Positions 2,178 to 64,000 of a stretch of DNA of 64,000 bases are shown here, in pieces. The translations under genes and the position numbers were made by a program. The DNA is taken from contig MQRK01219369.1 in assembly GCA_001938485.1 (NCBI GenBank), positions 10,691-74,690 on the forward strand, read 5' to 3'. The stretch comes from Girardia tigrina. Its lineage: Eukaryota. The notes under the pieces are model-generated. The model made no database searches and was not told the DNA's origin. It saw nothing but the letters and a program-made list of their open reading frames with translations. Each line of letters opens with the position of its first letter. Positions within the stretch are counted from its first letter, which is position 1.

Positions 2178-3466
2178 TTGGGTTGTTCGGAAAGTCATTT
2201 CGTTTTTTTGTATTAAAGTAAAAGACAAATTTTTATGACGAATAAATATTTTATTGAAATACATATTGACCATTGTGGTCCAATACCTTCTTCCATTTTC
2301 CTGGCAGGGACATGATTCCACGTTCATAAAATATTTGTTCTTTGCTGCTAAAAAACTTTTCCAGGTGATTTTTAACATCTTCATTTGACACAAAAGTGTT
2401 ACCGTCTAAATAATTTTGTAGAGACCGAAACAAATGATAATCAGAAGATGTGAGGTCTAGAGAATATGGTGGGTGAGGCATGATGTTCCATCCAAGCTGT
2501 AAAAGCTTTTGGCGAGTTACCAAACTTGTATGAGGTCTGGCATTATCTTGGTGAAACACTACACCTTTTCTATTGATCAATTCTGGCCTTTTGTATTTAA
2601 GGGATTCATTTAATTTGTCCAGCTGATGACAGTAAGACGTCCGAATTGATCGTAGTTTTGTCCGGAAGAAGCTCATAAAATACGATTCCTTTGAAATCCC
2701 ACCAAACAGATAGCATCACTTTTTTTATGAATTGATTTTCGAATTTTAAAGTGCTTTCGAAGTGCTTTGAGCAGGTTGATCTTTTTTACTCCAAGATCTC
2801 TTGCGTTTTACATTATTGTAGACTACCCATTTCTCATCTCCAGTGACGATGCGCTTCAAAAATGGATCATTTTCTTGACGTTTCAGAAGCATATCGCAGA
2901 TGTCTAAACGATATCATAAATTTGGTAAGAATATGAGGAATCCGTATGTCGAGTTTTGATGTAAAACCTAGGTGCTTCAAATGATCATGGACGGTCGAAT
3001 TAGATAAATGTAATGTCTGGGCAATTTCGCGAGTTGTTGTTCGTCGGTTTGAATCAATTAATGTCTTTATTATGTCTTTGTCGGCCTCAATGGGCCTTCC
3101 GGAACGTGAAGAATCTTCAACATCAAAATTTCCGGACCTAAATGTTTTAAACCAGTTTTGGCATTGGCGTTCTGTCAACACATCTTCTCCATACACTTCG
3201 CATAATTTTTTTCTTGCTTTTACAGCATTTTTACCTTTCGGAAGTAAAAATGTAATACATGCCGTAAATTCTGATTCTTGCTTTCCATCTTTGATATGTC
3301 AAAAATCAAATATAAATGTTTTTAATTATTCCAAAATTTTCCAAATCTAACCTTGATTACCAACTGCTAAAATAAATAATATAGTCAATGATTATTAATG
3401 ATTAATATAAAAAATACATTTAAAACAAGTATTAAAAAAGATGAAATGACTTTCCGAGCAACCCAA
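2178..3466 (-). mobile_element. Mariner, full length (about 1.29 kb), mellifera-subfamily-like, transposase pseudogene 2251-3288
   Basis: TIRs TTGGGTTGTTCGGAAAGTCATTTCG / TGAAATGACTTTCCGAGCAACCCAA followed by TA. Motifs QCQNWF, TGDEKW, HQDNARPH, HPPYSLDLTSSDYHLF. Frameshifted. Confidence 0.95.
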
Positions 3467-13652: not shown

Positions 13653-14912
13653 TTAGGTTGAGGAATAAATTCCCGCCGTTTTTTGAATTTTTAATCAATT
13701 TAATATTTAAATCAAATTTTTTTATGTAATGTTATATGTTATGTGAAAGCAATTGTTTTGCTCTAAAAAATGGTGTATTTTGTTTTTTTATTCAGATTAA
13801 TTTTTTATCGATTTTTAGACCATTGAAATGGAGTGTCAAGTCGACAAAAAGGAGCATTTCCGACACCATCTATTGTTTGCGTATAATCGAGGCGCCAAAG
13901 CCGCAGACGCTGCCCGAAAGCTTTGTGCTGTATATGGAGAAGGTACTATAGCTGATAGAACCGCTCGTGATTGGTTCGCAAAATTTAAAATTGGCAATTT
14001 TGACCTCAAACATGCACCTCGTTCAGGACGACCAAATGAATTCGATGAAGAGCGTTTGAAAAAATTTTTGAATGAAGACGCGCGTCAAACCACTCGAGAA
14101 TTGGCGGAACAAATGGATTGTGATCAAAAAACTGTCGTGAACCACCAGAAATAAATGGGAAAAGTTCAAAAAATGGGAGCTTGGGTACCACATCTTTTGA
14201 CCGAAAACAACAAAAACCAGCGATCCACAATTTCGACGAGTTGGCTTGCCCGTCATCGCTCTACTCATGGTCATAAGCAACAATTTCTTTATCGAATTGT
14301 AACGGGTGATGAAAAATGGTGCCTGTACGCCAACATGAAACAGCGCAAAGAATGGCGTCGCCGAGAAGAACAATCGACACCGCGAGCAAAACAGGATCTT
14401 CATCCACGAAAGACAATGCTATGCGTTTGGTGGGGTTGGGAAGGGATTATTCATTATGAATTGCTTCCTCGAAACCAAACAGTGTTCAACAGCTGCATAG
14501 ACTCAACGCCGCTATAAGACAAAAACATCCGGATCGACAACATGGCGTTATTTTGCAACACGACATTGCACGTCCTCATATTACCAGAACGCTTGGTTGG
14601 GAAGTGTTACCGCACCCTCCGTATTCACCTGACTTGGCTCCATCTGATTTTCATCTTTTCCGTTCGCTTTCTAACGCTTTGCGTGGTGTTTCTTTCAACA
14701 ATGATGGAGAACTGCAAGTTTGGTTGGCTGAATTCTTCGAGTCAAGACCGGGCGATTTCTATCAAAGAGGCATTGAAAAACTCGTTGAACGTTGGGAAGA
14801 AGTCGTGAACAATGGTGAAGATTATATTTGTGATTAATTTGTAGTAACATTTTTGTTAAAAAATAAAATTTTAATTTTTCAAAAAACGCTGGGAACTTAT
14901 TCCTCAACCCAA
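13653..14912 (+). mobile_element. Mariner, near full length, transposase pseudogene 13828-14837
   Basis: TA + TTAGGTTGAGGAATAAATTCCCGCCGTTTTTTG ... CAAAAAACGCTGGGAACTTATTCCTCAACCCAA + TA. Motifs WVPHLL, TGDEKW, HDIARPH, HPPYSPDLAPSDFHLF. Stop at 14152 and small deletions. Confidence 0.95.
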
Positions 14913-43800: not shown

Positions 43801-46694
43801 TTCTGAAATATTTTTAATTTTACTATAACACTAAATTTTCTTTTTTCAATGAAGATATTTTATTATTATTTTTCACATAAAAATATGAATCAAAGTACAT
43901 TATATACATTTGAAAATATACAAGTTTCAAATGTGTAAAAATTATCTAAAACTCTTCGAAACAATTAAAGTGCTTAAATGTTTAATGGTACATATTTTTG
44001 AGCGAAAAATTTAATTATTAATGTTATCAACTCGAATAAACACCCATCTTTATGTTGACGCCCTTGGTCGATGTCTTTTTGGTCTCTAGAAATATATGGT
44101 ATTAATCTTAATGTCTTAGTTTTGGAAAAAAATTGCATATACATATTCTTGGCTTGATTGGGATAATATTTTTATGTCATCATTACACTTTAATCGAAAT
44201 TAAAATTTGTATCAAAATAATTAAGTTCAGGAATTTTTTTCAATTTAGTTGAAATTTATTTTGTTTATTATTTCCCCTTTTTGTGGTAGGAAAGTATAAT
44301 CCTTGTACAGATTTGCGTACAAATATTGTGATAAAATATTATTATAAAATATGAGATATATAATGTAAACACAAGTTAATTAGCAAAGAATTTAAATTAA
44401 TGCTCCCAATGTGCAATGTAATATTATAATTGTTATTTTGTAATTCGAATAACTCAAGTATTTTAATTGTCTTAAAATTAATATTTTTTGATTATGGGAA
44501 TTAAAATTTTTTACCTATAATTTGAACTGCTATTTTATTACACTAAACGTTAATTTGTGAAAAACATTTTTTAATGGGGATTTTATCAATAAATATTTAT
44601 TTGATATGTATCTATTAGATTTTATTCAAATTTTGTTAGAAAATAAAAATTAACTCCTCGAAAGATGAGACATCAAATTGCACTTTATCCCAGTCAGTTT
44701 TCAAGTGAATTTAAATTTTCTATCTCATCAAGTAAATATGATTCTGAAGTTTTTAATTACTTTCTAATAACCAAATTAAGAAGGAAAACGTACCCAGCAA
44801 AATTATTTCCGTCTACTTTAAACTTTTCTTTCGAAAACTTATTTTCTGGTTTTATATTTCAAGTTTCCTGTTTTGAAGACATGTTTTGTTCAAGCTGAAT
44901 TAACACGATTTCGAAAAACGTATCCATCTTCCTTATAGAACACAATCACTAAAAATCATTTGAAGAGCAAGAATTAAATTAAGTCCTCCAAAGAGAAAGA
45001 GTTTAGACAAATTTAAACTTAAGTTATTAAAAATGAAATTATTCTAATTTTATAATTAAACAATTTCAGAAATTTAAATAAAAAAATTTTCCGTTAAAAT
45101 TTATCATCAATTTTCAAGTGATGGACACAATTTACCAAACAGAAGTTTTCGAAATGCCAATTTTAACAAACTTCTGACAGAATTATTTTAATAACATTTA
45201 CAAAAGAAAAATAAATTAATCTAATTTAATTGTGTAATTACTGTAATTTTGTTTTCTCAAATTGTTTTTTCGATCAATTTTTTTCCCAATCTAGATGTTC
45301 GTTGTCCCATTTAATCATCTTATTAAGTTCATTAACTTTTTGGACTTTTTTGTATTAATTTAGAAAATTGAGATAAATAACATTTGATGAAATTTCGTAC
45401 TTAATCATGACTGTACTGTTTTTTTTTAACAAAATAATTTTTATGTTTGTTATACTTTATATACTTTATTACTATGTCAGTTTTCCATTATATTTGTATG
45501 AAACTTTGTCTCTTGTGTAGAGCAACATTAACATTTTTTTACCAAAACGTCAACCAGAATTTGGTTAACCTTAAAAACTCATTACTGATTACATCCCCCG
45601 TATAATGGTTGTCATGTTATTGAAAAGTTACGGAAGTTTTTTTTAAAATATTTGAATGGATATAAACATTATTTTAAACAATTATTATAAATAGCTTTAC
45701 GACTTTTGAAAACTTGGTATAGTGGTGTCACACAGATTCCCTTACGGACTCAGATGACAGTCAAAGTGTTACATTACTCCATGTGTGACTATTTTGAGCC
45801 GAACTTTAATCCGCAACTTCAGTATTTTGTAAATTTTATAATATTTTGGTATAAAAAATTGATTACAATAATAAACGCGTTTGGTGACTGAATTTTGTTG
45901 AAGATCAATTTGAAAACGATTATTTTTCTGCAAAATATAATTTACAGAGCGTCTCCCTACATTTTGATAGCGTTTCAATATATTTTGATAGTTTAAAATA
46001 TTATACATATCTTAATATATTCCGAAAAAAATTATTAGATGCATAAAAAGACATTATATGTAAGGGATTTACTTAAATAAATATTTTAATCATTTTAACC
46101 TTAATTTATCTATGCAACTACAAAAGTTACAAAAAAATCAACTTTATTCATTTGACTTCTTTTGTTAGATACTTTGGCAAATAACTTACCATGTCTATAG
46201 AAACCATAACAATTCTCCTCTATAATTTTAAAACTTTTTTTTAATATTTTAAAAAGGTTTATATATATAGAAATTAAAATGTTTTATAAAAAATGTTATT
46301 TATAAGAAAAGAATTTTTATTTAGCAATTTTAATGTGGTCCACTTTCTAAAATTTTCTAAATAAATATATTTTTGAATTAATTTGTCTTGTCGAAAATGT
46401 ACTTGTACGTTGCCAAAATGTGCTTGAAAATCCTGTAAGTTTAGGATAATAAATTGACGTAATATCTAAAAATTATAACCTCAAAATTTGATTTTTGAAG
46501 ACGCTAATGTGAATGTAATTTTTGTTTATCTTAAGTTGAAATGGTCAGTCTTGAAAACTCCGATAGACTGATCAAACAACTGATTACCTTGTACACAAAG
46601 ATGAACGAAAACATTAAAATTCTAGCCTCTTGGACTCTATTGAGTGGAATTAGTACGCCGGTAACTCCACTAGTTAATAATAATCGCGAAATTA

Positions 46695-47949
46695 TTAGGT
46701 TGTTGCGAAAGCAATGCAGGTTTTTGAACCTAAACTTTAAACAAATGTAACTCAGCACAGAATAAACTTTATTAATCGAAATGAAAACCAGCAGAATCAA
46801 TACATTTTTACAAACGAGAAACAAGTTTATTGATGTCCTAGTGTAGAACTCCTGAATTTTGGATGCGATGAAAGCGTTAAAGGTGTCTTTCTCGTCGTCT
46901 TGGTTTTTGAAGCATTTTTCCTGGAGGAAGTTGTTCAGATGCTTGAAGAAATGGTAGTTGGTGGACGAGAAGTCCGGTGAGTAGCGTGGATGAGGCAGAG
47001 TTTCGTAGTCCAACTCGTTTAGTTTTTCTAGGGTCGGTTTTACGATGTGTAGCCGGGCGTGGTTGTGGAGGAGAATTGGCCCCTTCATATTAACCAATCT
47101 TGAGCACATACGTCGGAGCTCGTGATGCATTTGTTGGCAGTACTTCTCTGCGATGATCGTTTCATCCGTATTCAGAAAGCTATGAAGGATGAGACCGGCT
47201 GCAGACCACCAAACAGTTGACATAACCTTCTTTTGGTAGAGTTTCGGTTTCGGAAAGTGGTGAGGAGCCTCATCGCAGTCCAACCATTGTGCTGAACGGC
47301 ACCTATTGTCGTAGAGAATCCACTCCTCATCAGACGTCACAATCCGATCGAGAAACGAATCGTTCTTGTAGTGCAGAAGAAGCGCGGAAGACACCTCAAA
47401 ACGACGATTTTTTACTTTCGTTCAATTCATGAGGCACCCATTTATCGAGCTTTTTTGACTTTTCAATTTTCTTCAAGTGCCGAGCGACGGTTGAGGGATC
47501 AACGTTAAGCTCTTCTGTGAGTGCTCGAACAGTTATGCGTGGATTGGCTTCCATCAGTTCCTTCGATTCGTCGATGGGCGGCTGCCATGAGGCTCATCTT
47601 CCAGGCTGGTATTGCCAGAGCGAAACTTTTAATACCAGCGCTGCACCGTGCATTCATCGACACTTCCTTTACCTCAAACTTCGTTGATGTTTCGAGCGGT
47701 TTGGGCTGTATTACACCCTAGTTTAAACTCGTAGAAGTAAATGTTGTGAAAATTACGTTTTGACATCTGCATTTCTGAAAATCGAAATTATTAACAAAAG
47801 AAAGATTATAATCAGTTTTAGACAAATATATCTGAAAGAGTATAAATTAAGCTTTTGAATGACTAATAACATCATACATGATTTAGTCGTATAACATTGC
47901 GGTAAATACAAAAAAATCAAAAACCTGCATTCCTTTTTCAACAACCTGA
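46695..47949 (-). mobile_element. Mariner, cecropia-subfamily-like (Hsmar1-like), transposase pseudogene 46772-47766
   Basis: TA|TTAGGTTGTTGCGAAAGCAATGCAGGTTTTTGA ... TCAAAAACCTGCATTCCTTTTTCAACAACCTGA|TA. Motifs FLDRIVTSDEEWILYDN, PKPKLYQKKVMSTVWWSAAG, HPRYSPD. Confidence 0.95.
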
Positions 47950-48734
47950 TAGTATATTTCAAGTTAAATAAAATTCAACTGAAATTTCGTATTAAAATAA
48001 TTACGTATAATTAACATTACTTTTAGATGTTTTTATTAGATAGCAAAATAGATATTTAAACACAAAGGAAAAGTTTTATAATTCTTCGAGCTTCATTTTA
48101 ATCATTTTTTCTTAATAATATATCATTGTTATATGGAAAGGTACTTATTAAATTACCAATCATTTATATTGACGTTCTTCTTTATGTATTTTACTCATGG
48201 AAAAGCTTTGATTAAAATATTTAAATTTAATTCTTCTGATAATAAATGGACTCAAAATCTACAAAGATTATTCTTCTTGAGTAATCCCAGGAAAAGCAAA
48301 CTAACAGTGGATTGAATCAATTTAGGATATCAAATAAAGTGGACACTAAAATAAAATAAAAAGTGACATCTAGGAAATTATATTTTTTTAGAGATTGAAT
48401 TTTCGAACATTTACTGATATATAAATTTTGGGATTTAAAAAAAATTTTGATTAATTTAAAACTTCTTTTCCCGAGGAATTAAAAACTTTATCGGGTACAA
48501 GATGGAGGTAATCGTGAAACTTTGACGGTGGTGGATTTTGGTATAAATACTTTAAGAGATAAATTTAATTCGATACTTTTTCTTTGAAAAAGTATTTTGA
48601 ATTTAAATTATAAAAATCAGTGATTTTCATTAAATTAGATAATTATTTCATGTTTTTTAATAAATTATAAATACTTGAACATTTACAGATCAGAGATTCT
48701 TAACACTTTTATATCGTCCTCTTAACATAACATG

Positions 48735-49520
48735 CAGGGTGATCAAAAAGTCAGTTAAATATTTTAAATGTATATTGAATCTTTATTATTAAAAATAAAC
48801 AAAACATATCTTAAGACAAGATCACTTATTATATAAACTTAATCTTTTTTCAAGGAGCACCATTCTTAGAAATATACTTCTCTAGTCTAAATTTTACAAT
48901 ATTAGTAGTATCTTCAAATTCTTGTTGTTATTTGAGAATCCATTTATTCTATGCGATTATTCAGTATCGACAATGTTCTTGGCCTTTTACGATATGTCAA
49001 GTAGCCACAACTGAAAATGTCTATAGGTGATAGATCTAACGATCTTACTGTCTAAAGAAATGGTTCATACTTTCGTATCCAGCATTATGAGAAACTCATG
49101 TCTAAGATATTTTATACCTCCTTTGCGTAATTTTTATGAACTCTATTTTGTTGAAAAATGGCTTGAGAATAACTTCTTTGATACTTCAAGAACAAGCTAA
49201 ACATTTCTCCAATATATAATTATAATTAAAAACATTGTGTTGACATGCAAAAAGAATGATCAATACAATTTACTACACGAAATTCCTATCCAAACGTTCA
49301 CTTTTGCGCTTGAATTTACATACATTACAATTTCATCTATTGCATTTCACATAGTCACTCTTGCTTCTTTATCTTCTTTGGATAGCTGCAATACTTGGTA
49401 TTTGTATGCGAATAATTTGAGACTTTCCCTCAATGTCTTTTGAATTGATATGTAAGAAATTTTATTTCATTTTTTAATCTTAACATTATTAATCTTTGAA
49501 AATGCCTCTTCAATTTGTGC
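48735..49520 (-). mobile_element. Decayed Tc1-like remnant
   Basis: CAGGGTGATCAAAAAGTCAG terminus. Minus strand RSLDLSPIDIFSCGYL resembles RSPDLSPLDFFLWGYL. Confidence 0.55.
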
Positions 49521-50584
49521 TTTTCTTCCTCTTTACTTGGCATTTCACTTCTTGAATAAATCAGAGATTCTTAACACTTTGATATCGTCATCTTAACATA
49601 ATATACATGGCGATCGAAACATCAGACATCACATTTCTAACATGGTATTTAATAATTGGAAGACAGGAAAGAAAGGGGTTAATCATTGAGTACAAACATT
49701 TTTAACCTTTACTCATATAAGTATATTTAAATATAAAAGTATTTTGTAATAGCACATTCTTTATCATAATAAATATTTTTAATGTTGTTTCTAAGAATTG
49801 ATATATTTTTGTTTATAAAAGAAAATGTTTCCATTCTTTATTCCATTGAGGTTTGGATACTCCTTTCACTCTCCTCCGGCATAATCAATGACAATATCTT
49901 ATTATAAATGTGAATACATTGAGCAAGTGGAGCACTAATGAAATTAGAAAGTATAGTTCATAATATCGGTGAAGTTTGTGCTCATTTTGATCTGCATTGT
50001 TTGTTTACACCAATTTGTGCATCAACATCTGTGTGTACCTCAACACTGTAATCATTTGAGCACATTTTATTACGCAATTTAGCTCTGTTTATTAGTCAAC
50101 CGCTCTATTTTTAGTTTATTATATTATTAAAAGTTTAAATTAAAAAATATATTTTTTTACTTTTAATGTTTTAAAAGTAAAAATTTACCCACATCTACTC
50201 TCAATCATTGTTAAATAATGTTTTATTAGTTCTTTTTTAAAAGTTCTGAACTCTTATTTTTATATATTAGCCATAAACTAACCGATCCTCGTATCAAACT
50301 ACAATCCCGATTTTGTGTCTTAATTTGCTGTCAAATCTGTTATAATTTTCGAGTGTCTTCATTCATGTCCCATGAATTGGTCAAAGTCTCTTGTATTTAC
50401 AAAGCAAAATAAATAGAGTTTTGGTTTATAATATATGACGTTTTTATTAAAATAATTTGTGATTTAAAAGTTTTAGGAAATTCTTCGAAAGATAAATTTT
50501 GTAATGATAATAAATTTAATAATTTATAATACAAAATAATTATTTTCCTTAATGAACTATTGAAAAATGTCTCTTCTAAATCAG

Positions 50585-50802
50585 GTCCAGACAGTGTGGT
50601 CTTGAGGAAAGAAATTTATAACCAGCTTTCGAAAGTTTCTCCACAGCTGGAGAGCTCATCATGTACCCCAATACCGAACGAGATATCGAGCGAAGACCAT
50701 TTGACAATCAGATCCAGTCCATGTCAAACACATCCCCATCACAAAGTCACATTTAATGCTTATTCAAACACCAGAAATTCTGTACACACCACAGAAAATT
50801 GA
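50585..50802 (+). CDS. nfi: Probable terminal coding exon of the NFI-like gene
   Basis: aaatcag|GT CCA GAC ... AAT TGA. Phase 1 matches the donor at 39619. S/T/P-rich; AU-rich sequence with AATAAA (51061) follows. Confidence 0.65.
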
Positions 50803-53579
50803 TTTTATTGCCACATTTTTGCCCGAGTAATAATGATTTAATGTTTGTCATAGTTTACCAATCTGTATTTATATACATAAGTTATATTTTTTCACAAATT
50901 CAGATGATCTTTGAAATGTTTCCATGTTCTCAAACAATGTGATTATTTCTTATTGATTTGCTAGACGAGACATTTATAGACAGTCAGACAGATTGAGACA
51001 GTCAGTAACTGATTTCGCATATTCTCAACCAAATCGCAATTTATTTTATCTATGTATATAAATAAATATGCATATATATATTTATTTATATTATATTATG
51101 TGACATTTTTCAATTACTTTTCTTTTATCATAGTCATGGTGTACAAAAATGATTGATTTATTATTATTTATTTATGTTGGACAATTTTTGAACGTTTATT
51201 GTATCGATTTTTTTTATAAAAACACAAACCGCAACTATGATTAAATTATATATTATGCAGTATATTTCTGAAAAGTTTTATCTCTTGTAACTATTTTGAA
51301 AGTTGTATTGAAAATTTGTTTATTTTTAATCTAGATGTTTTATTTTGTAAATAGGAATATTATTAATATTATCATCATTATTATTATTATCTTTATATTA
51401 TATAAATTATTGTGAAATTTTCAATGAGTCTTATATGAGAAAACAGAGAATCAATTGCACCATGTTTGCTCTATTTTCATTATTTGTACATTTGGTTCAT
51501 GTAACGAATCCTTCATCGGTTATCATGGTTACATCGTCAGGCGTGGTGCCTTGGGAATAAAACTTTATTTATGCATGTTTCAGAAACAAATGGCAGCACA
51601 ACAATCAATGGTTTCAATTTGTGAAAAGTGTTTTAAGATTCATGTAAAGGTGATTAAGCGTTTTTTTGTAATTCACACAAGCTTGATATTGATATTGAAC
51701 AAAAATACCAAGTAAATACCAATTTGGCTTTCAATCCAAGGAGTAGAACTACATCAACTTTTCCAACATTACCTTAATTCAAATAATTTTCCTTGACTCT
51801 TGCTATTTGATGGAAACTGTGTGTTTCTGGATTTTATTTACTTATTGCATATGTTTCATTTATGTTGAAGATTGTTAATTGTAAGTAGTAACATATATAT
51901 TGAATAAATTTAGATAATCAGACCTGTTGTGGTTTTTACTTTTGTCAGTAATTTATTAATATTTTATATATAAAATGATTGATTCTTGTCTAAGTTTATG
52001 CTTTATTTTTAACACCATTATATACGTATAGCAAGATTATATATTTTAAATAATAATTATTGATAGATTCGGACAGGTCTTCCCAGCATATTCGAAATTG
52101 TTTCAAATTAATCAAATTAGACAATATTTGACTAAAAATATCTTTCGTCGTAATTTAAACCAATTTTGTCCATTATAATCTTGGTTTCGAAAACATACTC
52201 GACAGGGTCAAACAATCATAACTTGTCAGAGGAGGTTCTTTCCTTAATTATTTTTTTTCTTTTTTTAATTTATGTCACCCTTGAAATAATCTAAGCTGAA
52301 ATCAGTTTTTTTTCCATTCTACCCTTTTCTTGTGGAATATTCCTAGTAAAAAGCGTTTGTCATAAGTTTGTATCAATAAATGCATCGTTAATGGACGTGA
52401 GTTGGTTGACTAGGAAGTTTATATCAGCTTTATTTCGGAATGGGACTAAATTAGACTAGATCATATAATACGAGATCGCCAATTTTAATGTGCAATAATA
52501 ATTACGAAAATAAAACGTCTTATTGTTTTTGAGATAAACTGAAATTGTTACAATAAAAAGTTTAATCGTTGCTATTCTTTATTAAAAAAATCATATTTGT
52601 ATTTATTTAAATTCTTTATTTCATTGAACACTTGTATTATTTGTTTCTCCTGGAGAAATGATACCTAGACTTTTTAATTAATAAGAAGATAAAGAATGTT
52701 TTTGCATATAAATTAAAAAAATCCTATTTACATTTATAATAAATAAATATGTAAACAACCTAAGGCAGGATTTTGCACAGACCTACTAATATCCTCAAAT
52801 AAAATTGCGCCGATAAGACATCGTATCAAAAATAATTAACAAAGCTTATTTTTCTTCTTAATTTTACAAAACGCATTTTCAGTTTTCATTAATTTTTTAA
52901 GTTATAATTTGTTTGTCTTTATAAAAGTTGATATCATTACAGAATAATTTATCTGTATTTTTATAAACAACGATGAGATTATCTAGAATAGCGTTTTCAA
53001 GATTATATATCCCATTTATGTTATGGTCTATTAAAATGGCAGAAGGAAAATCAAGTAAAGGAAACTGAAGTTTGAAATGCAAAAAGTTATACAGGAAAAT
53101 ATGAATTTGTAAAAGGAAAGACAAATTGATAAAGATAACTTTTTATTAATGAGGAACTTAGACTAAATTAAAAAAAAGTTATAACTGTTTTGAATGCTAA
53201 GTATAAAAGTGTTAAAGAAGCCTCACTCAAAAAATAACTGATAAAGTTACCAATCTGTACATATATATAATATTTGTCTAAAAGTGTGTTTGTTTGTTTG
53301 TCGGTCATGCTTTTCAATGTGAAATGACGGACGAACCGGAGTGTTTCCATTTAAGAACGTGGTCACTCTGGATAGCCAACATCAATACAATTCTGTTGGT
53401 ACAGCGTTTTGGCTAAAAGACGCCTGGAAAGCGATGAAATCGATCCAAAACCGTACAAGTTGTTAAATGGTTAAATTAACACCGATTTCGAATAATGACG
53501 ATTTTGATGATTCTTACACGGATTTTCGTGAAACTTTTTATGAAAATATCAACAAAATACTAATTTTTTAAAAACAAAA

Positions 53580-54445
53580 ATTTTCATCAAAATATATTGT
53601 TATTAATTTCGACGAATCAACCGTCATCATCAGACTGAATTAACAATGATATACTCGCATTTATATATCCAAGCTATGTTTATGTAATCATTATGTAATT
53701 TAAATCAAGAAAATACTTTCAATAAAGTTGAAGAGGATGGTGTTTGGACATTAATTTTAGGATTAAAAGATTTGATCAACGATGCTTCACACATCACCCT
53801 CTCCCAGTAATTATCAAATTGTGAACACAAAATCTTAAAATTACTGACATCAACTTTACTATTCAAACAGTTTTTCTTATGTTGAGCGATATTGACATCA
53901 CTTTCCCTGCGATTTTGTTCCTGAATCCGTTTACAGAGATGACGACAAGTCTCTCCGCTGTATATGGCGTCACACCTATTACATTTATATTGATAAACTA
54001 AATTGGAACATAACCCAGTTGGAGTGATAGATTTACTACTAAACAAACTTCCTATCTTACATGATCTAGATACAATTTTTAAATTAATAAATTATTTTCG
54101 TCATGTTTCAAAATAGAAAGGTTTGATCTATAGATCTTGGACACTTTCGTCTACGTACGCTAAATGTAATGAAAGTATTGATAAGTTAATAAATTTACTT
54201 CATAAAAATGGATATTCCAAATCGATAGTTGAAAAATTAACTCGTGAAACTGTCGATAAATTAATTAAATCGGAAAATGAAAAATCAAATACAATAAATA
54301 GCGACAAAAACAAAAATCAGATAAATAATAATTATAATAATATTGGTTTTTTTTACTGTTCCCTACTCTGACGGTTTCAGGAAATTCAAAAACTCTATTT
54401 TGAAACATGATGAAAATAATTTATTAAATTTAAAAATTTCACTTT
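53580..54445 (-). mobile_element. Penelope-like element 1: 3' GIY-YIG part on - strand (53705-54117), inverted RT-thumb/linker part on + strand (54117-54440)
   Basis: NLVYQYKCNRCDAIYSGETCRHLCKRIQEQ...CEASLIKSFNPKINVQ. The + strand reads KGLIYRSWTLSS...LLHKNGYS...VPYSDG. Confidence 0.9.
53599..53635 (-). ncRNA. Minimal type I hammerhead ribozyme A (intact core)
   Basis: gt-CTGATGA-T-GACGG ttgat TCGTC-GAAA-ttaa-TA|ac. Confidence 0.75.
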
Positions 54446-55199
54446 TGAATAATTATTTTGTGCACTTTCCTTTGATTTGTAAACATTCGTGCATCTCCTT
54501 GTTTTGCTTCAAGATAACAAGAAAGAAAGATCATTTGTTTACAAAGGTGAGATGAATGTAAGGAAAATACCAATTTCCGCTTGGGTGGGAGAATCACCAT
54601 TCTATGTTCGATATACTCGAATTAACATACATCCTTCATACATTCACACCTTTATACAATTTAAAATATTCCTCACAATAATAAACATTGTAATTCAGAA
54701 ATCACCCCTGAAATAAAATAACTTTGTCATAATATTTGAAGTGTTTTTTAATGGATAACGTACCATTTAATTTGGAAGAAGGGTCAGTACCAAATGTCAC
54801 CAGCATGAAAGTCAGCAGAATCAACAGAATGCAGTTAATCAAATAAATCATTAGAAAGAAATCCTTATTATAGATGTAAATGGAAAAAGATTTGCTATAT
54901 AAACTTTTATTCTTAATTAAATTAATTAAAATTTCTTAGTATGAATGATTTTTTAAACATTTCCAGTAACTTTCTAAAAAATTAATTAATTAGATTTGTA
55001 TAGGTTACAGTTTCTTGAATATACGTGTAATTAAAATTTAGAATTATTTTTCTGTTTATTATACTTTATTCTCAGATGCAGAAAAATTGAGCTGGAATTC
55101 CCAAAAAAAAATCGTCAGCTAATTGATACTTTTTCATTGAGAGTATACGCATATCAAAACAAGTAATATATATTAAAAAATTTTTTTAGAAAAAAACAC

Positions 55200-55375
55200 T
55201 CTTATACGTGCACTCAAAGATCTGCTAATTGATTCATGTATTATCATGGGTAATGAACAAGTATACAAAGTTTCAGTTTAATTGACCATTGGGAAGTGGT
55301 TGAAAAATCAATTACAAGATTTGTATCAGACAAACAGATAGATGAAGCTTATATAAAAGTAAAACGAAGTCCGGA
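55200..55375. mobile_element. Possible Helentron-associated (HINE/DINE-like) short repeat
   Basis: General resemblance only (ACAAAGTTTCAG...GGGAAGTGG...CAGACAAACAGATAGA...AAGCTTATATAAAAG). Confidence 0.3.
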
Positions 55376-55427
55376 TGAAAATATTCTTTTAATAACCAAA
55401 GTCATCCATTTAAAAATATATTTTAAG

Positions 55428-55466
55428 ACAATATATTTTGACGGATCTACTGCCATCTCCAGGTCA
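55428..55466 (-). ncRNA. Hammerhead motif B, degenerate (CTGGAGA; GAAA changed to AAAA)
   Basis: Inverted-repeat partner of hammerhead C with two core substitutions. Confidence 0.6.
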
Positions 55467-56177
55467 CTAATTAATAATCAATTCACCTGTATATAAATAC
55501 AAAAATGATGATTATGTAATCGATTGCATGAAATCATGCTAATCAAAAATTCTCAATAAGCTGGTTGGGACTACCGATTGAACATTGATTTTAGGGTAAC
55601 AAGACCTAATTAACAATGCTTCACACGACACTCTCTCCCAATAACTATCAAAATGCTTACACAGAATTTTGAAATTATCAAAATTAACATCACATTTACA
55701 TTTTTTCCTATGTTCTGTAATATTACTCTTACTCTCTTTTCGACCATGTTCTTGAATTCGTTTACAGAGATGACGGGCAGTTTCTCCAATGTATGTGGCA
55801 TCGCACCCATTACATTTATATTCATAACAATATCAGAACAAAGTGTAATAGATTTATTACTGAACATATTTTAGATTTTATGAGATCGTGATATAATTTT
55901 TAAATTTAATTCATTGTTAGTTGCTTTTAACATTGTATTTTTAAAGTTTTTAAATCCTTCAGAATAAGGTACAATTAAACAATATTTAGGCATATTATTA
56001 ATATCTAATGATCTTTCGATTTCTTTCTTAGATCCATCAGGAGAAGCCAAACTCTGATTTTTCGAAAAATCTTCAAAAGTATTTTATCTACTGTTTCGTG
56101 TTAGCATGATTTCATGCAATCGATTATATAATCATCATTTTTGTATTTATATACAGGTGAATTGATTATTAATTAGT

Positions 56178-56216
56178 GACCTGAAGAGGACGGTAGATCC
56201 GTCGAAATATATTGTC
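56178..56216 (+). ncRNA. Minimal type I hammerhead ribozyme C (intact core)
   Basis: gac-CTGAAGA-G-GACGG tagat CCGTC-GAAA-tata-TT|gtc. Confidence 0.8.
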
Positions 56217-56398
56217 TTGAAATAACTTTTAACATGTTTTTAATTTTAAGTAAATAAATATTTTTCTTTAAATAAAATCATTTTTAAAATTAAATTAATT
56301 TTTAGATAAAATTAATACCGAAATTATAAATAAACTTGAAAAAAGAAGGCAATTTTTTATTATAAACAAATAAACGCCATTAAAAATATATATTTTAG

Positions 56399-56437
56399 GA
56401 TAATATATTTCGACGGTTTAACCGTCATTATCAGATC
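56399..56437 (-). ncRNA. Hammerhead motif D (G8 to A: CTGATAA)
   Basis: gat-CTGATAA-T-GACGG ttaaa CCGTC-GAAA-tata-TT|atc. Confidence 0.7.
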
Positions 56438-56654
56438 ACTGATTATGTTCTTTTTTATTGCTTTTATATAAGAAATGAATGATTATACAATCACTTGCGT
56501 AAGTCTAATCGAAAACTCTTAACAAATTAGTTGAGAGTGCTGTTTGAGCATTGATTTTGGGATCACATGATCTTATCAACAATGCTTCATATGACACTCT
56601 CTCTCAATAATTTTTAAAATGCTTGCACAAAATCTTAAAATCATTTATGCTCAT

Positions 56655-58160
56655 TATGAGGGGTTAATTTAAATTTACATCTCGCCAGAATAATTTATTA
56701 TTTTTTTAATTTAAAGGTAAAAATATTTTAATGTTAATATGCGTATTAGATATTTAAAAAAAATAAAAAAGGTAATATGTTGTTAATGTTTTAAGGTGAT
56801 ATGTTGTCTCGGAATACATGTGATACATGTACACAATGCTTGATGGCTCATGAAGATGCTAAAATGATGAAGATAAAGACTCGAATAATCAACGTCCTGG
56901 ACACATCGCAGATATTCAAATATCAACAAGAAGAAATAGAAGAAATTAAAAAATACCCAAGTTCAGGTAAAGACAGAAAGCTTACGATTGAAGACGGCAT
57001 AATAAGAACAAACAAGGGGAAGATTTGGATACCAAAGTCAAAAAGAGAAGAAATGATCATACAAATACATACGCTATTGTCGCACGCGGGCGCAGAGAAA
57101 GTAACGAAACACATCTCAGAAAATTATGACATGATCAATCGGAATGAAATAATAAAAGAAGTAATTGGACAATGTGAAGCATGTCAAAAAAAAGTAAAAC
57201 ATTAACGACCGTTACGAAGGAAAAACGGGTTACACTGGTCGCAAATGAACCATTTGAGAAAGTGTACATAGACATATGCGGATCACTAAAGGAGACTTGG
57301 AGAAGAAAAAAGTATATTGTTGTAATCATAGATCAGTTTAGTAGGTACATATCTTTGACAGCCATTAGCAAGCAGGATGAAATAACCATAAAAGACACCA
57401 TAATGACCAAATGGATCTTGAGATTTGGAGCACCGAAGGAAATACATACAGATTGTAGCAAGACATTCGAATCGAAGGTAATCAAAGACATGGCAGAATC
57501 AATGAATATAAAAATGTGTTACTCAAGTCCGTACCATCATAACACGAACGGAATAGTAGAAAGACAATTTCGGACAATTAGAGAATATTTAAACGCATCG
57601 TTACATACAAAAAAAAGGATCAGACTGGGAGGAACTACTACTGGAAATAGAATTCACATTAAACGCAACTTTTCAGAAAACAATAGGGAAGAGCCCAGCG
57701 GAAATTATATTCGGTAAGAAAATATACAGAGATGGATGGTATAGTCAATATATAAAGTTACAGCAAGGAAAAGAAGACACAACAACCAGAAGAAATTTCG
57801 AAATTGGAGATGAAGTACTAGTCAAAGTGGAAACGGGGATAAAGAGTAAAGATAAATATGAAGGACCGTATAAAGTGGTAGAGAAAACACACGTCAGAAG
57901 GTATAAATTAATAAATGAAGATGGAAGAATTTTAGATCGAAACGTTGAAAAATTGAGAAAATTCTTAAAGAAGGGGGATATGAGTGGTTAATTTAAATTT
58001 ACATCTCGCCAGAATAATTTATTATTTTTTTTAATTTAAAGGTAAAAATATTTTAATGTTAATATGCGTATTAAATATTTTAAAAAAATTAAAAAAGGAT
58101 ATAATAAATTTTGGTGTTAAAAAATTAATCCTGATATTGAAGTTGCAACCACTTCTCACA
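56655..58160 (+). mobile_element. Ty3/Gypsy copy B: partial 5' LTR (56655 to about 56775), integrase, PPT, 3' LTR (57979-58160); TSD CTCAT
   Basis: HHCC finger (HTLLSH...CEAC), PFEKVYIDICG, PKEIHTD, NGIVER, KYEGPYKV. PPT AAAGAAGGGGGA. CTCAT at 56650-56654 and 58161-58165. Confidence 0.95.
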
Positions 58161-59029
58161 CTCATATTGCATTTGCACGTTTTTTTATGCTCAGCAATAT
58201 TACTCTTTCCCCCCTTTTTGACTGTGTTCTTGGACTCGTTTGCAGAGATGACGGGCAGTCTCTCCGATGTATGTGGCATTGCACCCATTACATGTGTATT
58301 GATAAACAATGTCCGAACACAATCCTAAAGGAGTATGTGATTTATTGCAAAACATATTCTAAACTTTAAATGATTGAGAAATAATTTTTAAATTTAAAAT
58401 GTTATTTGTTGATTTCAAGATCGAATTCTCGAGGTGTTTAAAACCCTCGGAGTAAGGTAAGCAGAGTATACCCAGGTGTAAAGCAGTTTTCAATGTTTAA
58501 ACTATTAATTAGTTCATTTTTGATTTTTTCTTTTTTGATTATTTTATCTAGAGTCTCACGAGTGAGTCTGTCTATGATGGACTTAGACTAACCGTTATTA
58601 TTCAATAACTTGCTTAATGTATTAATACTTTTAATAGATTTTGAAAACGTAGAAGAAAGAGACCAAGAGCGGTATAACAAACCTTTGATCATATTCCTTT
58701 TATATTCACAAAAACTATTTATGGAGGTGTACAAACCAATACCAGTTTTCTTTCGATATATTTCAGTTTCATAATGATCATTTTTCCTTTCAATTAACAC
58801 ATCAAGGAATGGTAATTTTCCGTTTATTTCTTGTTCTACTGTAAAGATTATATTGGGATGAATCGAATTCATGTAATCTAGAAAAGGAAACACATATTCT
58901 CAAGATTCAAAGGCTAGAAAGATATCATCCACATATCTCTTATAAAGTAGTGGTTTTTTCCCCAAAAACAATTCTATTTTTTCTTCAATGGAAGAAAGAA
59001 ATATAGAGGCTAACGTTGGAGCCAATGGT

Positions 59030-59068
59030 GATCTAATGATGACGGTTAAACCGTCGAAATATATTATC
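59030..59068 (+). ncRNA. Hammerhead motif E (G5 to A: CTAATGA)
   Basis: gat-CTAATGA-T-GACGG ttaaa CCGTC-GAAA-tata-TT|atc. Confidence 0.7.
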
Positions 59069-59209
59069 CTGAAATTATAAAAGTCTAATTTTTAAAAATA
59101 AAATCTGAAATGATTTAAATTGAAAATTTGTTCGAAAAATTGTTTATAAACAAAAATTTATCAATTTAGAAAGATGTCAAATTCTGAAAGCTTGGCTGAG
59201 AGTTGTCCA

Positions 59210-59485
59210 AAGGGCGTTTCAAACTGTAATGAAAATAAATGTTCGAAAAACCATATTGGTTTTCTTAATAGCTCGAACTGTTTGAGATGAGTCGACTTTG
59301 ACCATGGCTCTCATTTCATCATCCTAGATATCTGTAGATCGACCAGTTCTTGGTGCATCTTGTAAACGAAAATTTTCGGAACGAAATTTTTGGAACCAAG
59401 GTTGCACAGTGGTTTTGTCGATACTATTTGTTCCTCAAATTGCGTTAATTTTAGAGTCGTTTATTGTTGGCCTAGCTTGAACTCA
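59210..59485 (-). mobile_element. Mariner N-terminal HTH remnant
   Basis: Minus strand WFQKFRSENFRLQDAPRTGRS. Confidence 0.65.
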
Positions 59486-59829
59486 TAAATTAAAATTTTT
59501 TGAAATTTTTTCTTTAACATGTTGAGAATTACTTGCATAAAATTTAAATTTTTGAAAAGGCAAAGTTTCGACTTTTAGAGCATAAGAGTTACCATAAAAC
59601 AGTGTATTTAAACGAATTATTAAGTGAATATCTAATAAACAAACAAAATTTAACAGTTCATATATCAAAAGAAGCAAACATTCGTGCCAACATAATATTA
59701 AAATATATTCTTCAAATGGAAGATTAAATAGCATGAAATTTCCTAAGTTATCTATAAAATTTCTCATATTAATTTGTAACATGTTAAATTAATGAGGAAT
59801 CTAAGACTCAAAGACTATATTAGGAAATC

Positions 59830-60560
59830 CAAACATCGTTTGCTCACATTCAGACTGTTGAAGAGCATTCTTGTTGTGATTCGAATTCAATAATATTCTC
59901 CGATTTTTATTTGATGTTTTCGCCAATTTCCCAATGTCTTCTGGTACTTTTCTCATTTAAAACACTATGTCTACCATGCTTAAATTGTGCAAACCAGTCA
60001 TAGATAATAGTTTCGGATGGGCTACATTGTACATATTCTCATTGTACACATTCTTCAACCCTTAAAAAATTTCAAGACAAGAAACTATTAAACTACAAAA
60101 TTCCTCTAGAGAATACATGAATATGACGAAAAATTGAATGTCCACAAAAATAGACCACATGCAGATGCTACAGTAAATCGAATTGTGTATTTCAGTTAAC
60201 TATACTACCCAAGGAATATATCACTAAAAAAATCAAATAAATCGATATTTTATTAGACCTTCATTCCAGGTATTTAATGGACATACTACTTTATTTTTAC
60301 AATCAGAACAGAGTCACAGCTGTTCCTTTAATAAAGTTCTTAATAAATCTTTCGATTCGATTACCACATTGCATCTTTTCACATCGAGCTCTAGCAACAC
60401 GAAACAACTCTGCCGAATCTTTAATTGTTACCTTCATGTAGGTAATTACCTCTGTTTTAATTTATGACACAATATTTAGAACTTCTGTGATTGTCTGTCT
60501 TTCAATTTGGAACCTTCTTCCAAACGCTGGTCTCCAATATTCATCATACTACAGGTTAGA
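59830..60560 (-). mobile_element. Decayed Tc1/mariner remnant(s)
   Basis: Minus strand KTIIYDWFAQFKHGRHSV at about 59965-60020. The rest is only weakly transposase-like. Confidence 0.5.
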
Positions 60561-61489
60561 TTTAATAGCTAATCAAAACCAGTTTTGCTACAATAATGCT
60601 TCGATCCCATAATAAAAAATAGATAATCTATTATTTTTAAATTCAATAATTTTGAAACTGAGATGTTCTAAAAACTTCAGAATACGAGATTCCAAATACA
60701 AGTTTTTCATTACCAGAAATATATAAATATTGTATTAATCTAAATACATTGTTATATGAATACAATTTTAAATTTACAATAACAGACTTGAATAAAAATA
60801 AGTGAATATAAGTATCAGTTTTTATTATTTATGAAACAAAATTAAATGATATCGGATGTTTATGGCGGTGCTTTCATATTATATCTTAACTGATATTCTT
60901 TCAGAAGCATTTAAAACATTTTTAGAGTCATTTTGGTTTTTTTACTTTGAACTTTCAATTTGATATGATCGAGTAGAATCATGAAACATTATATTATTCT
61001 CTAAAATTATTTAATTGTTATATTTTATAAAAAATCATTGAAAGTAAAGAAATACTGTTTATAATTATCGAATAAAATTTTACAATAGTAAATAAATATT
61101 TTATGAATTATATTTTTATAATAAAACATTAAAATAATTTCTTATTTTTTCACACCAATGCAGAATTCATTATTTATGTTTTATATTATTAATAAATATA
61201 CAGAGATTTTTATATAAAAAATAAATTTAATTACTCGGGAAAATTATTTACTCATTAATGGAAATTATTTTTTTCATTAAATCTGTAGTAGAAATAAAAG
61301 ATTAACTATCACTTTAAATCATAAAGTTAAAAAAATAAAAATGAATATAAATAATAATTAATAAATATTATTATATATATTGTAAATATTCAGGTAAGTC
61401 CTCTCCTCTCCTTTCCAGTATCTAAAGAGAGGCTATACTTTAAGTGGTCGTTTCCTGAGGAGGGGAATGAAAGAAAAGAACTTACTGAT

Positions 61490-61568
61490 ACACACACACA
61501 CACACACATATATATATANNNNNNNNNNNNNNNNNNNNNNNNNNNNNNNNNNNNNNNNNNNNNNNNNN

Positions 61569-61621
<53 letters not shown>
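61490..61621. repeat. (CA)n/(TA)n compound microsatellite around gap (N 61519-61568)
   Basis: Seen directly. Confidence 0.9.
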
Positions 61622-61624
<3 letters not shown>

Positions 61625-63865
61625 CATTATAAAATTCATAATTAAAATTGCGCACGACAGTATCGATTGAAAGATCGACATTACCATAGATCAAATTAAA
61701 ATTTAAATTTTAAATACTTAAATAAGACTTTTCTCATATCGACAGCATCTTATACTAGTCCAGTTTTTATCATACATTTTCTTACTAAACCTTCATGGTT
61801 GACAATAGTGTGATGGGCCATTTACCAGTACTTTTCTCCATCCACTAAAGAATAATTTTTCGTCCTCCGAATTTTCGTTTTCATTGGATCGAAAATTAGA
61901 GAGGAACAATACTATTTCCAACATTTCCTCAATAGTTCCAGTGCTTTTCAATCAATGTATCCACTCTGTCATTTTCATCAATTTCCTATATATTTCATGA
62001 ATATTCACTTCTATTAATATTTCTTATTTGTCGTTTCTTCCTTTGAGGTTAAAACCGTCGACCCGCGAATCAACCGTCATCTATACTTGTTAGCCATCAC
62101 ACATCGTTTTAATCTGGGTCAAGGTAACTGTAAGATTATCTAAATTATCTTTCCTTCTGGTGCGATTTTTTTCTGATAATTTCTTATCTAAAGTTAAATT
62201 GTAATTTTTGTTTGTGTAATTAATAATCATATTATTAAAACTTATTCACTTAATGTTATTATTTATCCCCAATAATACAGGTTAATATTCAGGAGATTCA
62301 TCAAAGTTGCTAAAATTATCTACAATGGAAAAATAAAAACTCGTTAAATGACGAATTTCTGAGCTTAGTAAATACTCTTTGACAATTATTAAGTATTGTA
62401 TTCATATTTTAATTTCAGAAGTCATTGATTGCAAAGTAACAAGGGACAGTGAGTATGACCATGAAGAAAATATTTTATAAAAGTGTACTTTTTTCTGTAC
62501 AATAGTGGAAACAGAATTGCATGTCTCGCCAATTAAAAGTACAATGGTATTTATTCCACTTTTGTTGTCTTTTTTTTCATTTTTTAGGTTTGAAAAGGCA
62601 GATTCTATTATATACATGTTGTTCATTACGACTCATTAATATAGAAACATTGCTATAAAATATAAATAAGATTGATAAGAGTTACTTGACTGTGTATTGT
62701 ATTTCATTGAATATAAAATAAATGATAAACATTTATTTAATAAATCTACATACTGATTATAATCTACTTTTATTAAAATGGAAATAGAAAATAATCTGAA
62801 AAGAAATAAATCTGTATACAAAAAAGATTTATTTAAGATTATTTTTATTATTAAATTACAATAGCATAATTTACATGGCAAGAGACACTAGTTTAAGTCT
62901 GAATTTATTTAATCGTCTTTTGTACATTATCTGGCATATTTCAAATAGAATAAAATTCTTTAAATTGCATTTGAAAATAATATATATATATATATATATT
63001 ATGAAATATATAAATATTTGTATTTATTATTATATATTTACAAACTGTTTTAGTTTTACAAAACTATATCTTTATAACTGCTTTAAAACATAATTAAAAA
63101 TCTAAATAACTAAAATAATATATTTATGATAAAATTTTAATAAGTTAATATTTTATTTAATTAATTACATATCAAAGTAAAGTTTTTATTTCATCGAATC
63201 TCAACTTATTCTTTATAAAATAATATTATTAAATTTTGAGAATTTATTATTAAAAATGACATATATTCTTGTAAATAACGATTAAAAAAATAATTCCTGA
63301 AAATAGCAAATAGCGAATTGATGTTTAAGAAAAGAAATTGAGTAATTCTTTTCCTTATAAAAGCAGAAACAAAAAGAAAAAAGGAGATAGGAAAATTTTC
63401 TAAATACAAAATAAATTTCCTTTATAAAAAATCAGAATAAAATTTTCAAAATTGATCTGCAGTAGACTCGTAAATTTTGACAGAAATTCAAAAATCGATA
63501 ATAATAAAAATACATTAGTTACTTCGAAATGAGACTTTTACCAGGAAATTTTGAGAAATAATTAAAAAAAATTAACAGATTGAGTAATATATTTCTATTT
63601 TTGTCTTTAAATAATTTTTATATACTTTACTTTTTCTTGTATATTTATAACTTATTTAATTAAACATTATGGATTTGAAGATGACATTGTTTGAATTATT
63701 TTTTATATAGTTTTCTATCAACAGTAAATAGCCATATTAAACTACCTTAGAACATAGATTTTGATTTGTTTATTATTTGTTTATATATATTTTTTGTTAA
63801 TTATGTAAAAACAAAAAAGCATTTTTTTAAAAATATACTCTAAAGGAACATGCATAAGTTATATA

Positions 63866-64000
63866 CAGGGTGTCCCAAAAATATGTATACACATTAAAAA
63901 TTTAATTTTATTGAATTTTATTTGTTTAACTTTCATTATATTACAGTTTGAGAACAAACTGTAACCAATATAAATAAATATTACTCGTACTTATTTTTAC
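63866..64000. mobile_element. Start of a Tc1-like element running out of the window
   Basis: TA|CAGGGTGTCCCAAAAATATGTATACAC terminus. Confidence 0.55.

Follow-up and report, generated by a model that had tools for sequence, protein, structure and literature searches.

The window, a 64,000-nt stretch of a Girardia tigrina contig, harbors five hammerhead motifs, here called A to E, and re-checking of the window sequence placed all of them where the initial annotation had put them. The five motifs derive from only three 5'-truncated insertions of Penelope-like elements (PLEs): the first holds A, the second B and C, and the third D and E, each of the last two pairs lying in the inverted arms of one insertion. 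The body of the first insertion (53559..54117, minus strand) contains a GIY-YIG endonuclease remnant (53705-54091; Pfam E 5.7e-4, below the curated cut-off), followed by a pseudo-LTR with hammerhead A (53599-53635, minus strand) and a tail. Its identity to the family copies is 93-95%, and at its 5' end lies an inverted ORF piece without a hammerhead (54117..54435, plus strand). A TATA box with a putative promoter role is found at 53660..53667 (minus strand), 34 nt before C3 of A, and an initiator-like TCAGT near A continues into stem I. The second insertion is similarly built: its body (55357..56097, minus strand) has a GIY-YIG remnant (55539-55832; Pfam E 4.6e-6), then a pseudo-LTR with B (55427-55465, minus strand; TATA at 55490-55495) and a long tail. 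Its inverted pseudo-LTR arm (56101..56236, plus strand), complementary to 55407-55542 in 125 of 136 nt, has a TATA at 56148-56153 and carries C (56178-56216, plus strand); a target duplication was looked for around this insertion and was not found.

The third insertion is flanked by an 11-bp target-site duplication (left copy 56320..56330, right copy 59071..59081, plus strand). Its 3' part (56331..56654, minus strand) comprises the end of the ORF, a spacer of about 75 nt containing TATA (56463-56470) and TCAGT, hammerhead D (56399-56437, minus strand) and a tail, while its 5' part (58161..59031, minus strand), about 95% identical to the family copies, encodes the C-terminal half of the reverse transcriptase (RT) and the start of the GIY-YIG domain. 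An inverted arm of 43 nt (59028..59070, plus strand) holds E (59030-59068, plus strand); it begins one base after the putative transcription start and runs 5 nt beyond the cut site. Nested inside this insertion is a deleted LTR-retrotransposon remnant (56655..58160, plus strand) with a 5-bp duplication, integrase pieces (Pfam rve E 8.6e-16, Integrase_H2C2 E 5.8e-10) and two LTR copies, the left one shortened; it is unrelated to the hammerheads. The marks of PLEs were thus seen: tandem or inverted pseudo-LTRs, 5' truncation and an optional tail. Assignment to a non-LTR retrozyme, in which every unit of a non-coding tandem array has its own hammerhead, was rejected, as the motifs lie behind coding remnants in dispersed or inverted positions.

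Each of the five window copies departs from its own family majority. Hammerhead A has an intact core, a 2-bp stem I (GU/AC), a UUAA loop 3, a UA cut site and one G-U wobble in stem II; its AUG (A9-U-G10.1) occupies 53627-53625. The conserved core of C is intact as well, but the extra base after A9 is changed from U to G, which turns AUG into AGG. B is degenerate, with four changes against the family majority (G12A, two in stem II, which is thereby broken, and one at N7), D carries G8A and E carries G5A. The initial annotation is accordingly upheld in part: all five motifs are present, but B, D and E do not fit the common pattern, the intactness of A and C extends to their conserved cores but not to stem II of A or the extra base of C, and the UU cut site does not apply to A. 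D and E do bear different single core changes, pointing to an intact ancestor, and the predicted cut of C after 56213 agrees with our position. A generic minimal-hammerhead descriptor, permitting one mismatch in CUGANGA, recovered A, C, D and E in the window; 30 dinucleotide-block shuffles of the window gave 0-1 matches each and 2 in total. These four matches are not due to chance. Within 44000-64000 the Rfam hammerhead covariance models gave no match at E<=10. The five belong to the minimal type I hammerheads found at Penelope pseudo-LTRs and are real but ordinary.

The exact core pattern has 12,717 matches in the genome versus 0 for a reversed control, and pattern matches amount to about 28,000 (12,717 + 15,249), so that three subfamilies side by side are unremarkable. 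The base after A9 is U in 12,534 of the 12,717 matches (98.6%) and non-U in 183, as in C. The family majorities have the core C3-U4-G5-A6-N7-G8-A9, G12-A13-A14-A15.1 and U16.1-H17, the catalytic bases being invariant across nine subfamilies; H17 in family A is A in 7 and C in 10 of 17 copies. Since the five motifs represent three independent insertions, the stem I covariation proposed for the window rests on three families there, but it is borne out across nine subfamily representatives, which show two-sided changes at all 3 stem I pairs. In the same nine sequences 93.9% of cells are paired, 6 of 11 pairs have two-sided changes, the loop 3 palindrome swaps AU for UA (4 vs 4 of 9), and the covariation score was reached by 0 of 500 shuffles, with the structure derived from these very sequences. 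The stem II loop, in contrast to the suggestion that it varies freely, is near-fixed within each subfamily and codes for Val-Asp or Val-Lys. A full tandem unit (L047) has a hammerhead at each end, 2,558 bp apart. Among dispersed copies, the counts at core versus other positions were 5/308 vs 26/868, 4/143 vs 13/403 and 4/187 vs 21/527; the core is little better preserved than the rest. The five window copies are likely inert relics under neutral decay.

For the parent element, sixty-seven loci were taken for a frame test, with family A not included, and 28 of them had a hammerhead detected <=170 nt upstream of the ORF N-terminus. In 25 of these 28 copies (21 open, 4 with a stop), drawn from six subfamilies, the RT-endonuclease ORF shares its frame with A9-U-G10.1. 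One D/E-family copy (L084) is open for 249 codons from A9-U-G, with N in two codons and the next Met at 98, and the overlapping peptides of L084, L103 and L033 from this family join into a single frame that opens at the hammerhead AUG and closes with the GIY-YIG stop. This single ORF has RT plus a C-terminal GIY-YIG domain (Pfam finds GIY-YIG; RVT_1 is weak, E 0.036), and other subfamilies show 57-67% conservation over its residues 24-130. The reading frames thus indicate that the hammerhead AUG is likely the start codon of the parent element, and the TISU core AAGATGGC is exact in two subfamilies. A stop at codon 16 occurs in 9 of 25 in-register B/C-family copies versus 1 of 42 in D/E, therefore a second AUG at codon 18 may serve in the former; the frame opened by A9-U-G lasts no more than 2-6 codons in three families that are more distant. 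By our hand count of Fig. S3 of PMC4209133, U stands at the extra position in only 12 of 56 published motifs. The AUG overlap itself is already published for the Anolis PLE (PMC11167929).

We also found a TATA box 31-40 nt before the core (C3) in 12 of 17 hand-picked subfamily representatives, counting TATAWA starts, versus 1 of 17 in any other 10-nt bin; 2,000 shuffles gave a mean of 0.7 and a maximum of 4. Genome-wide there are 38,506 matches (overlaps counted) against 2,518 for the control. Given the in-frame AUG and the TATA spacing, it is therefore likely that the ribozyme opens the mRNA. Transcription would start 3-7 nt before C3, and such a start would limit stem I to 2-3 bp. A literature search for hammerheads tied to a transcription start or start codon returned only PMC11167929 (AUG), PMC3846280 (TATA and initiator) and PMC2377424/PMC8557442 (an intron, and a start site within the pLTR); the available part of PMC4209133 links neither the extra U to a start codon nor stem I to a transcription start. 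As regards expression, the 17 listed runs were all contigs, two of them on record as RNA, and none contained half of the search words.

The notion that minimal hammerheads sit at Penelope pseudo-LTRs with a loop 3 palindrome suited to dimer folding is supported. Folding energies prefer the dimer over the monomer hammerhead, and neither is the lowest-energy fold: the double-hammerhead fold was the lowest-energy dimer in 0 of 8 constructs (-7 to -18 vs -22 to -34 kcal/mol), the value for B not being meaningful. Low dimer activity of PLE hammerheads is reported in PMC4209133, and the Anolis PLE hammerhead cleaves only with PLE protein added (PMC11167929), because of which the absence of cleavage as dimers would be too strict a refutation. 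C, which had been put forward for cleavage assays, is a poor subject, because G at its extra position falls outside the published consensus (H) and abolishes the AUG. A conserved downstream hairpin masking GAAA and the cut site was considered and rejected: 10-bp hairpins are predicted in D/E and B/C (p 0.09 and 0.07 vs shuffles), and the other 15 of 17 representatives came no nearer to significance; the prediction serves as a caution for construct design. Among 39 D/E-family copies, none was scored as ending <=15 nt from the cut and 30 end 31-90 nt past it, figures to be read with the over-extension of local alignment in AT-rich flanks, where three copies ending about 3-10 nt past the cut by eye were scored at 19-23.

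Taken together, we consider it probable that the five motifs are minimal hammerheads in the pseudo-LTRs of three broken PLE insertions, whose parent motif overlaps the likely AUG, likely forms the first 40 mRNA bases and is predicted to cut only weakly as a dimer, likely aided by the element's protein. A transcript of the tandem unit would carry one hammerhead at each end, and the palindromic A15.1-loop 3-U16.1 hexamer could let the end copies pair. Cutting at the 5' copy would strip the cap and the AUG and so turn translation off, a double cut would release unit-length RNA, and the integration template would be mostly RNA uncut at the 3' copy, as the ends of the D/E-family copies indicate. 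More tentatively, and with considerable doubt, the hammerhead in this group of elements may be a cap-proximal switch: the spacer of about 75 nt would hold the whole promoter, with transcription starting on the 5' strand of stem I, the core supplying the AUG (in a context of exact TISU type in two subfamilies), and the element protein, once it has built up, licensing pairing of the first and last hammerheads, upon which the cut would remove cap and AUG. If true, this would constitute negative feedback on the element's translation and would account for the very short stem I.

One would argue that the motif persists because it serves as a 5' element, structural or protein-binding (a promoter, a context for the start codon or a packaging signal), and seldom if ever cuts in vivo. 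In Anolis, catalytic mutants leave insertion in vitro unaffected, cleavage being dispensable there, and no RNA-seq reads were found to end at the cut site (PMC11167929); Naiad PLEs do well with no canonical hammerheads (PMC8557442), folding does not predict the active structure as that of lowest energy, and the core doubles as AUG context, down to the exact TISU core. However, the catalytic bases are invariant and stems I and II and the loop 3 palindrome covary, neither of which a start-codon context needs, and a C3G/G8C double mutant partly restores Anolis cleavage (PMC11167929). We thus regard a non-cutting role as unlikely. Quite improbable, in our view, is that stem I begins at the 3' splice site of an intron, a GT-AG one of 60 nt lying upstream of the D/E hammerhead. 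The D/E family does have GTAAGT 60 nt before a CAG adjoining stem I, and in D. virilis an intron does end at helix I (PMC4209133), but the GT falls within the TTACGTAA palindrome, for which another subfamily and window copy D have TTACGCAA; in several subfamilies no AG lies near stem I, while the TATA spacing is retained; and, as a weak argument from contigs mostly only presumed to be RNA, no such joint occurs among 11 joints or among the 15 listed of 57 others. That the window cluster itself functions, adjacent copies acting as cis dimers to cut a read-through transcript, is hardly credible: A, B and D do share the minus strand within 2.9 kb, and C and E the plus strand, but loop UUAA of A mismatches UAUA of B and D, the cores of B, D and E are changed, the C core with the E cut site gives a C-A mismatch at the core-adjoining stem I pair, in a transcript spanning an insertion B would pair with antisense C (136 bp) or D with antisense E, and dispersed copies keep the core little better than other positions.

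As found, the result matters little: it adds one more genome rich in known PLE hammerheads. The function of these hammerheads has been called unclear (PMC8557442). With tens of thousands of copies, spread over many subfamilies and compactly laid out as promoter, ribozyme and AUG, the genome makes a role in translation control directly testable.

The initial annotation singled out the UU site and the 2-3 bp stem I and remarked on the extra base; that these are unusual is not supported, as all of them appear in the PLE alignment of Cervera and De la Pena (2014, PMC4209133), where 24 of 56 motifs cut after UU (Fig. S3, hand count). The motifs share with that set the CUGANGA core, the extra base after A9, G10.1-C11.1, the palindromic loop 3, the short helix I and a UU or UC cut site, as well as the dispersal of thousands of copies that form consensus families, tandem copies spaced by about 3 kb and opposite-strand pairs, which are described there at 100-700 bp. 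The Schmidtea motif has the same 5-bp stem II and 5-nt loop II, and those of D. elegans, D. rhopaloa and D. ficusphila are alike in UAUA-UU and a 2-3 bp helix I; the G. tigrina subfamily sequences are absent from the 56 motifs given there. For Poseidon_Ac (PAc) of Anolis carolinensis, the start of the ORF is placed at stem II (Frangieh et al. 2024, PMC11167929); its promoter is unmapped in the part of that paper available, whereas here a TATA box and an initiator-like word adjoin the ribozyme, and its cleavage is shown with protein, whereas that of the present hammerheads is predicted. Adineta vaga Pen2a and D. virilis Penelope (PMC3846280, PMC2377424) share the inverted 5' pseudo-LTR, the optional tail, the target duplication and a pLTR in which the ORF's first codons lie. 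A. vaga likewise has a putative TATA box and an initiator-like word (PMC3846280), while in D. virilis Penelope the internal promoter lacks a TATA box and a 75-nt intron precedes the hammerhead (PMC2377424), unlike the elements studied here, for which no intron is supported. Finally, type I hammerheads, some acting as dimers, also occur in animal repeats as non-LTR retrozymes with canonical motifs, which have been proposed to descend from PLE pseudo-LTRs (PMC7229834; bioRxiv 10.64898/2026.07.22.740005).

All five minimal hammerhead motifs listed in the initial annotation were confirmed in the sequence at the claimed positions: A at 53599-53635 (minus strand), B at 55427-55465 (minus), C at 56178-56216 (plus), D at 56399-56437 (minus) and E at 59030-59068 (plus). 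A generic minimal-hammerhead descriptor recovered four of them in the window (all but B) and matched only twice in total in 30 shuffles; an Rfam search of 44000-64000 gave no hammerhead match at E<=10. A genome-wide scan returned 12,717 exact matches of the pattern CTGANGANGACGGN5YCGTCGAAA in the 1.43-Gb genome against 0 in the control, and a looser hammerhead pattern, admitting other stem II types, returned 15,249 against 127. An abundant hammerhead family with a CGCG loop 3 (loci L053, L062, L063, L067, L069, L070, L072, L079 and L080) has copies whose ends are (TA)n runs, in contrast to the families in the window.

The five motifs derive from three 5'-truncated Penelope-like insertions, whose bodies share 93-95% identity with the best family copies. 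The first contains a GIY-YIG remnant followed by A, and also a piece of inverted ORF that bears no hammerhead. In the second, a GIY-YIG remnant is followed by B, and C sits on an inverted arm that is complementary over 125 of 136 nt. The third reaches from an RT fragment as far as D and has E on an inverted arm of 43 nt; it is flanked by an 11-bp target duplication and interrupted at 56655-58160 by an LTR-retrotransposon remnant with a 5-bp duplication. Elsewhere in the genome, the D/E family has a full tandem unit (L047) with its hammerheads 2,558 bp apart. Since B and C, and likewise D and E, are arms of single insertions, each pair was probably identical at insertion, and the differences within pairs are probably decay since then. 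Arm E (59028-59070) begins 1 base after the inferred transcription start, stops 5 nt past the cut site and looks like a copy of the mRNA 5' end alone; alternatively, it could be explained by a 4-nt microhomology with RT sequence at the junction.

Other repeats were seen as well. The remnant at 56655-58160 is a deleted LTR retrotransposon with integrase core and H2C2 pieces, a purine run before the right LTR and a left LTR cut short; comparable LTR pieces are present in L005, L075, L092, L094 and L119. LTR-retrotransposon-like RT fragments of another element, with a YLDD motif, lie at 850-1616. Mariner-like transposase remnants were found at 46531-47421 (Pfam Transposase_1, E 1.1e-22) and, by eye, at 2251-3298 and 13819-14837. 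A 308-bp repeat (53262-53569), directly beyond the tail of A, matches part of L064 at 88% identity.

The window copies were compared with the majority sequence of each family, taken from 28, 13 and 17 copies at loci that body searches had detected. D carries G8A and E carries G5A, the different single core mutations ascribed to them earlier, and B has four changes, G12A among them. The cores of A and C had both been called intact. A shows a wobble in stem II and has A at H17, as do 7/17 family copies; in C, the U after A9 is replaced by G. A base other than U follows A9 in only 183 of the 12,717 genome matches. De la Pena and Flores (2001) reportedly found that G as this extra base lowers activity and U raises it. 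Passages of PMC1636495 describe only a moderate rate drop from an extra A. No productive pairing is possible among the five window copies. Core bases of dispersed copies are little better preserved than neighbouring bases, as expected for neutral decay. Across nine subfamily representatives the core is invariant, and the claimed stem covariation is upheld by two-sided changes in 6 of 11 pairs and by a score that 0 of 500 shuffles reached, the structure being derived from the same sequences. Judged from these representatives, selection is visible between subfamilies.

Of 17 hand-picked subfamily representatives, 12 have a TATAWA that begins 31-40 nt upstream of C3 (11/17 in the first set), as compared with 1/17 for any other bin and at most 4 in shuffles; genome-wide, the spaced TATA-hammerhead pattern matched 38,506 times against 2,518 in the control. 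About 75 nt separate the ORF stop from the next AUG. An initiator-like word (TCAGT, TTAGT, TCATT or TCAGC) lies near stem I, with its A falling ~27-34 nt downstream of the TATA and 3-7 nt upstream of C3; the usual TATA-to-start spacing is ~30 nt. When this A is at -3, stem I has 2 bp (4/4 representatives), and when it is at -4 to -7, stem I has 3-4 bp (6/7, the exception being a mutated copy). Given this spacing and the match to stem I length, the transcription start is likely on stem I. An alternative for the D/E family, a 60-nt intron upstream of the hammerhead, is not conserved across subfamilies, and the contigs examined contained no joint fitting it, which weighs slightly against it. One or two words of the TTACGTAA, TTACGCAA and TTGCATAA types, which we take to be a bZIP-like motif class, occur with kept spacing upstream of the TATA in several subfamilies (~54-69 nt upstream of C3 in L033, L054, L113 and L076) and are likely upstream promoter elements. 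A literature search, not covering Lunse et al. 2017, found no paper that maps the transcription start to stem I.

The D/E family has an AUG made up of A9, the extra U and G10.1. From this triplet 249 codons are open in L084 (two with N; the next Met is 98), and the overlapping peptides of L084, L103 and L033 give a single frame through RT to the GIY-YIG stop. Residues 24-130 show 57-67% conservation in other subfamilies. The frame was tested at 67 loci from that comparison, namely L158-L184 (27 loci) plus 40 picked within the 57-67% band. A hammerhead was detected at most 170 nt upstream in 28 of them, the other 39 being mostly truncated and a few missed by the pattern, and 25 of the 28, from six subfamilies, had the A9-U-G triplet in frame (21 open, 4 with a stop; in 2 loci the AUG was lost). 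The query accounts for one of these loci, and two are duplicates. One copy of family A, a family outside this test, has 30 open codons in its frame. Against generality, codon 16, which lies just ahead of a second AUG, is a stop in 9/25 in-register B/C copies (L023, L026, L132, L133, L136, L186, L187, L190 and L193) versus 1/42 D/E copies, and three distant families have a frame that ends within 2-6 codons. The codon-16 stops occur on several sequence backgrounds and suggest a sub-lineage that uses the second AUG or is mobilised in trans. The word AAATGGC, ~15-30 nt after the cut site in many subfamilies (L066, L064, L074, L054), is out of frame in D/E and could be the start codon of families with a closed A9-U-G frame. 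The exact TISU core AAGATGGC lies inside the hammerhead core of two subfamilies (L117:135-146 and L210), ~10 nt downstream of where transcription is inferred to start; passages of PMC2518114 describe TISU for mammals.

The monomer hammerhead fold is predicted to be unstable, at +2.4 to -2.7 kcal/mol, and less stable than the double hammerhead, at -7 to -18 kcal/mol; neither was ever the lowest-energy prediction in 8 constructs. These energies fit the low naked-RNA activity and the protein-assisted cleavage described in parts of PMC4209133 and PMC11167929, respectively. As the end lies 31-90 nt beyond the cut in 30 of 39 D/E copies, integration mostly used RNA uncut at the 3' copy. Pairing via the palindromic hexamer may join the first hammerhead of a tandem transcript to its last, or two transcripts to each other, and a 5' cut would take off the cap and the AUG. 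This cap-proximal, AUG-bearing layout is a modest, testable lead.

The window motifs belong to the known kind of PLE hammerhead. The consensus in Fig. S3 of PMC4209133 combines CUGANGAH with a 3-bp helix I and a palindromic loop 3; by our hand count, the extra base is U in 12 of its 56 motifs and G in 1. The UU cut site, stressed in the initial annotation, loses its distinction, because 24 of these 56 published motifs cut after UU; in the genome it occurs in 7,773 of 12,534 U-bearing matches. Excerpts of PMC11167929 place the beginning of the PLE ORF at stem II, and those of PMC3846280 report a putative TATA box and initiator in the rotifer pseudo-LTR. Finally, passages in the main text of PMC4209133 describe hammerhead pairs on opposite strands, as with B/C and D/E here.
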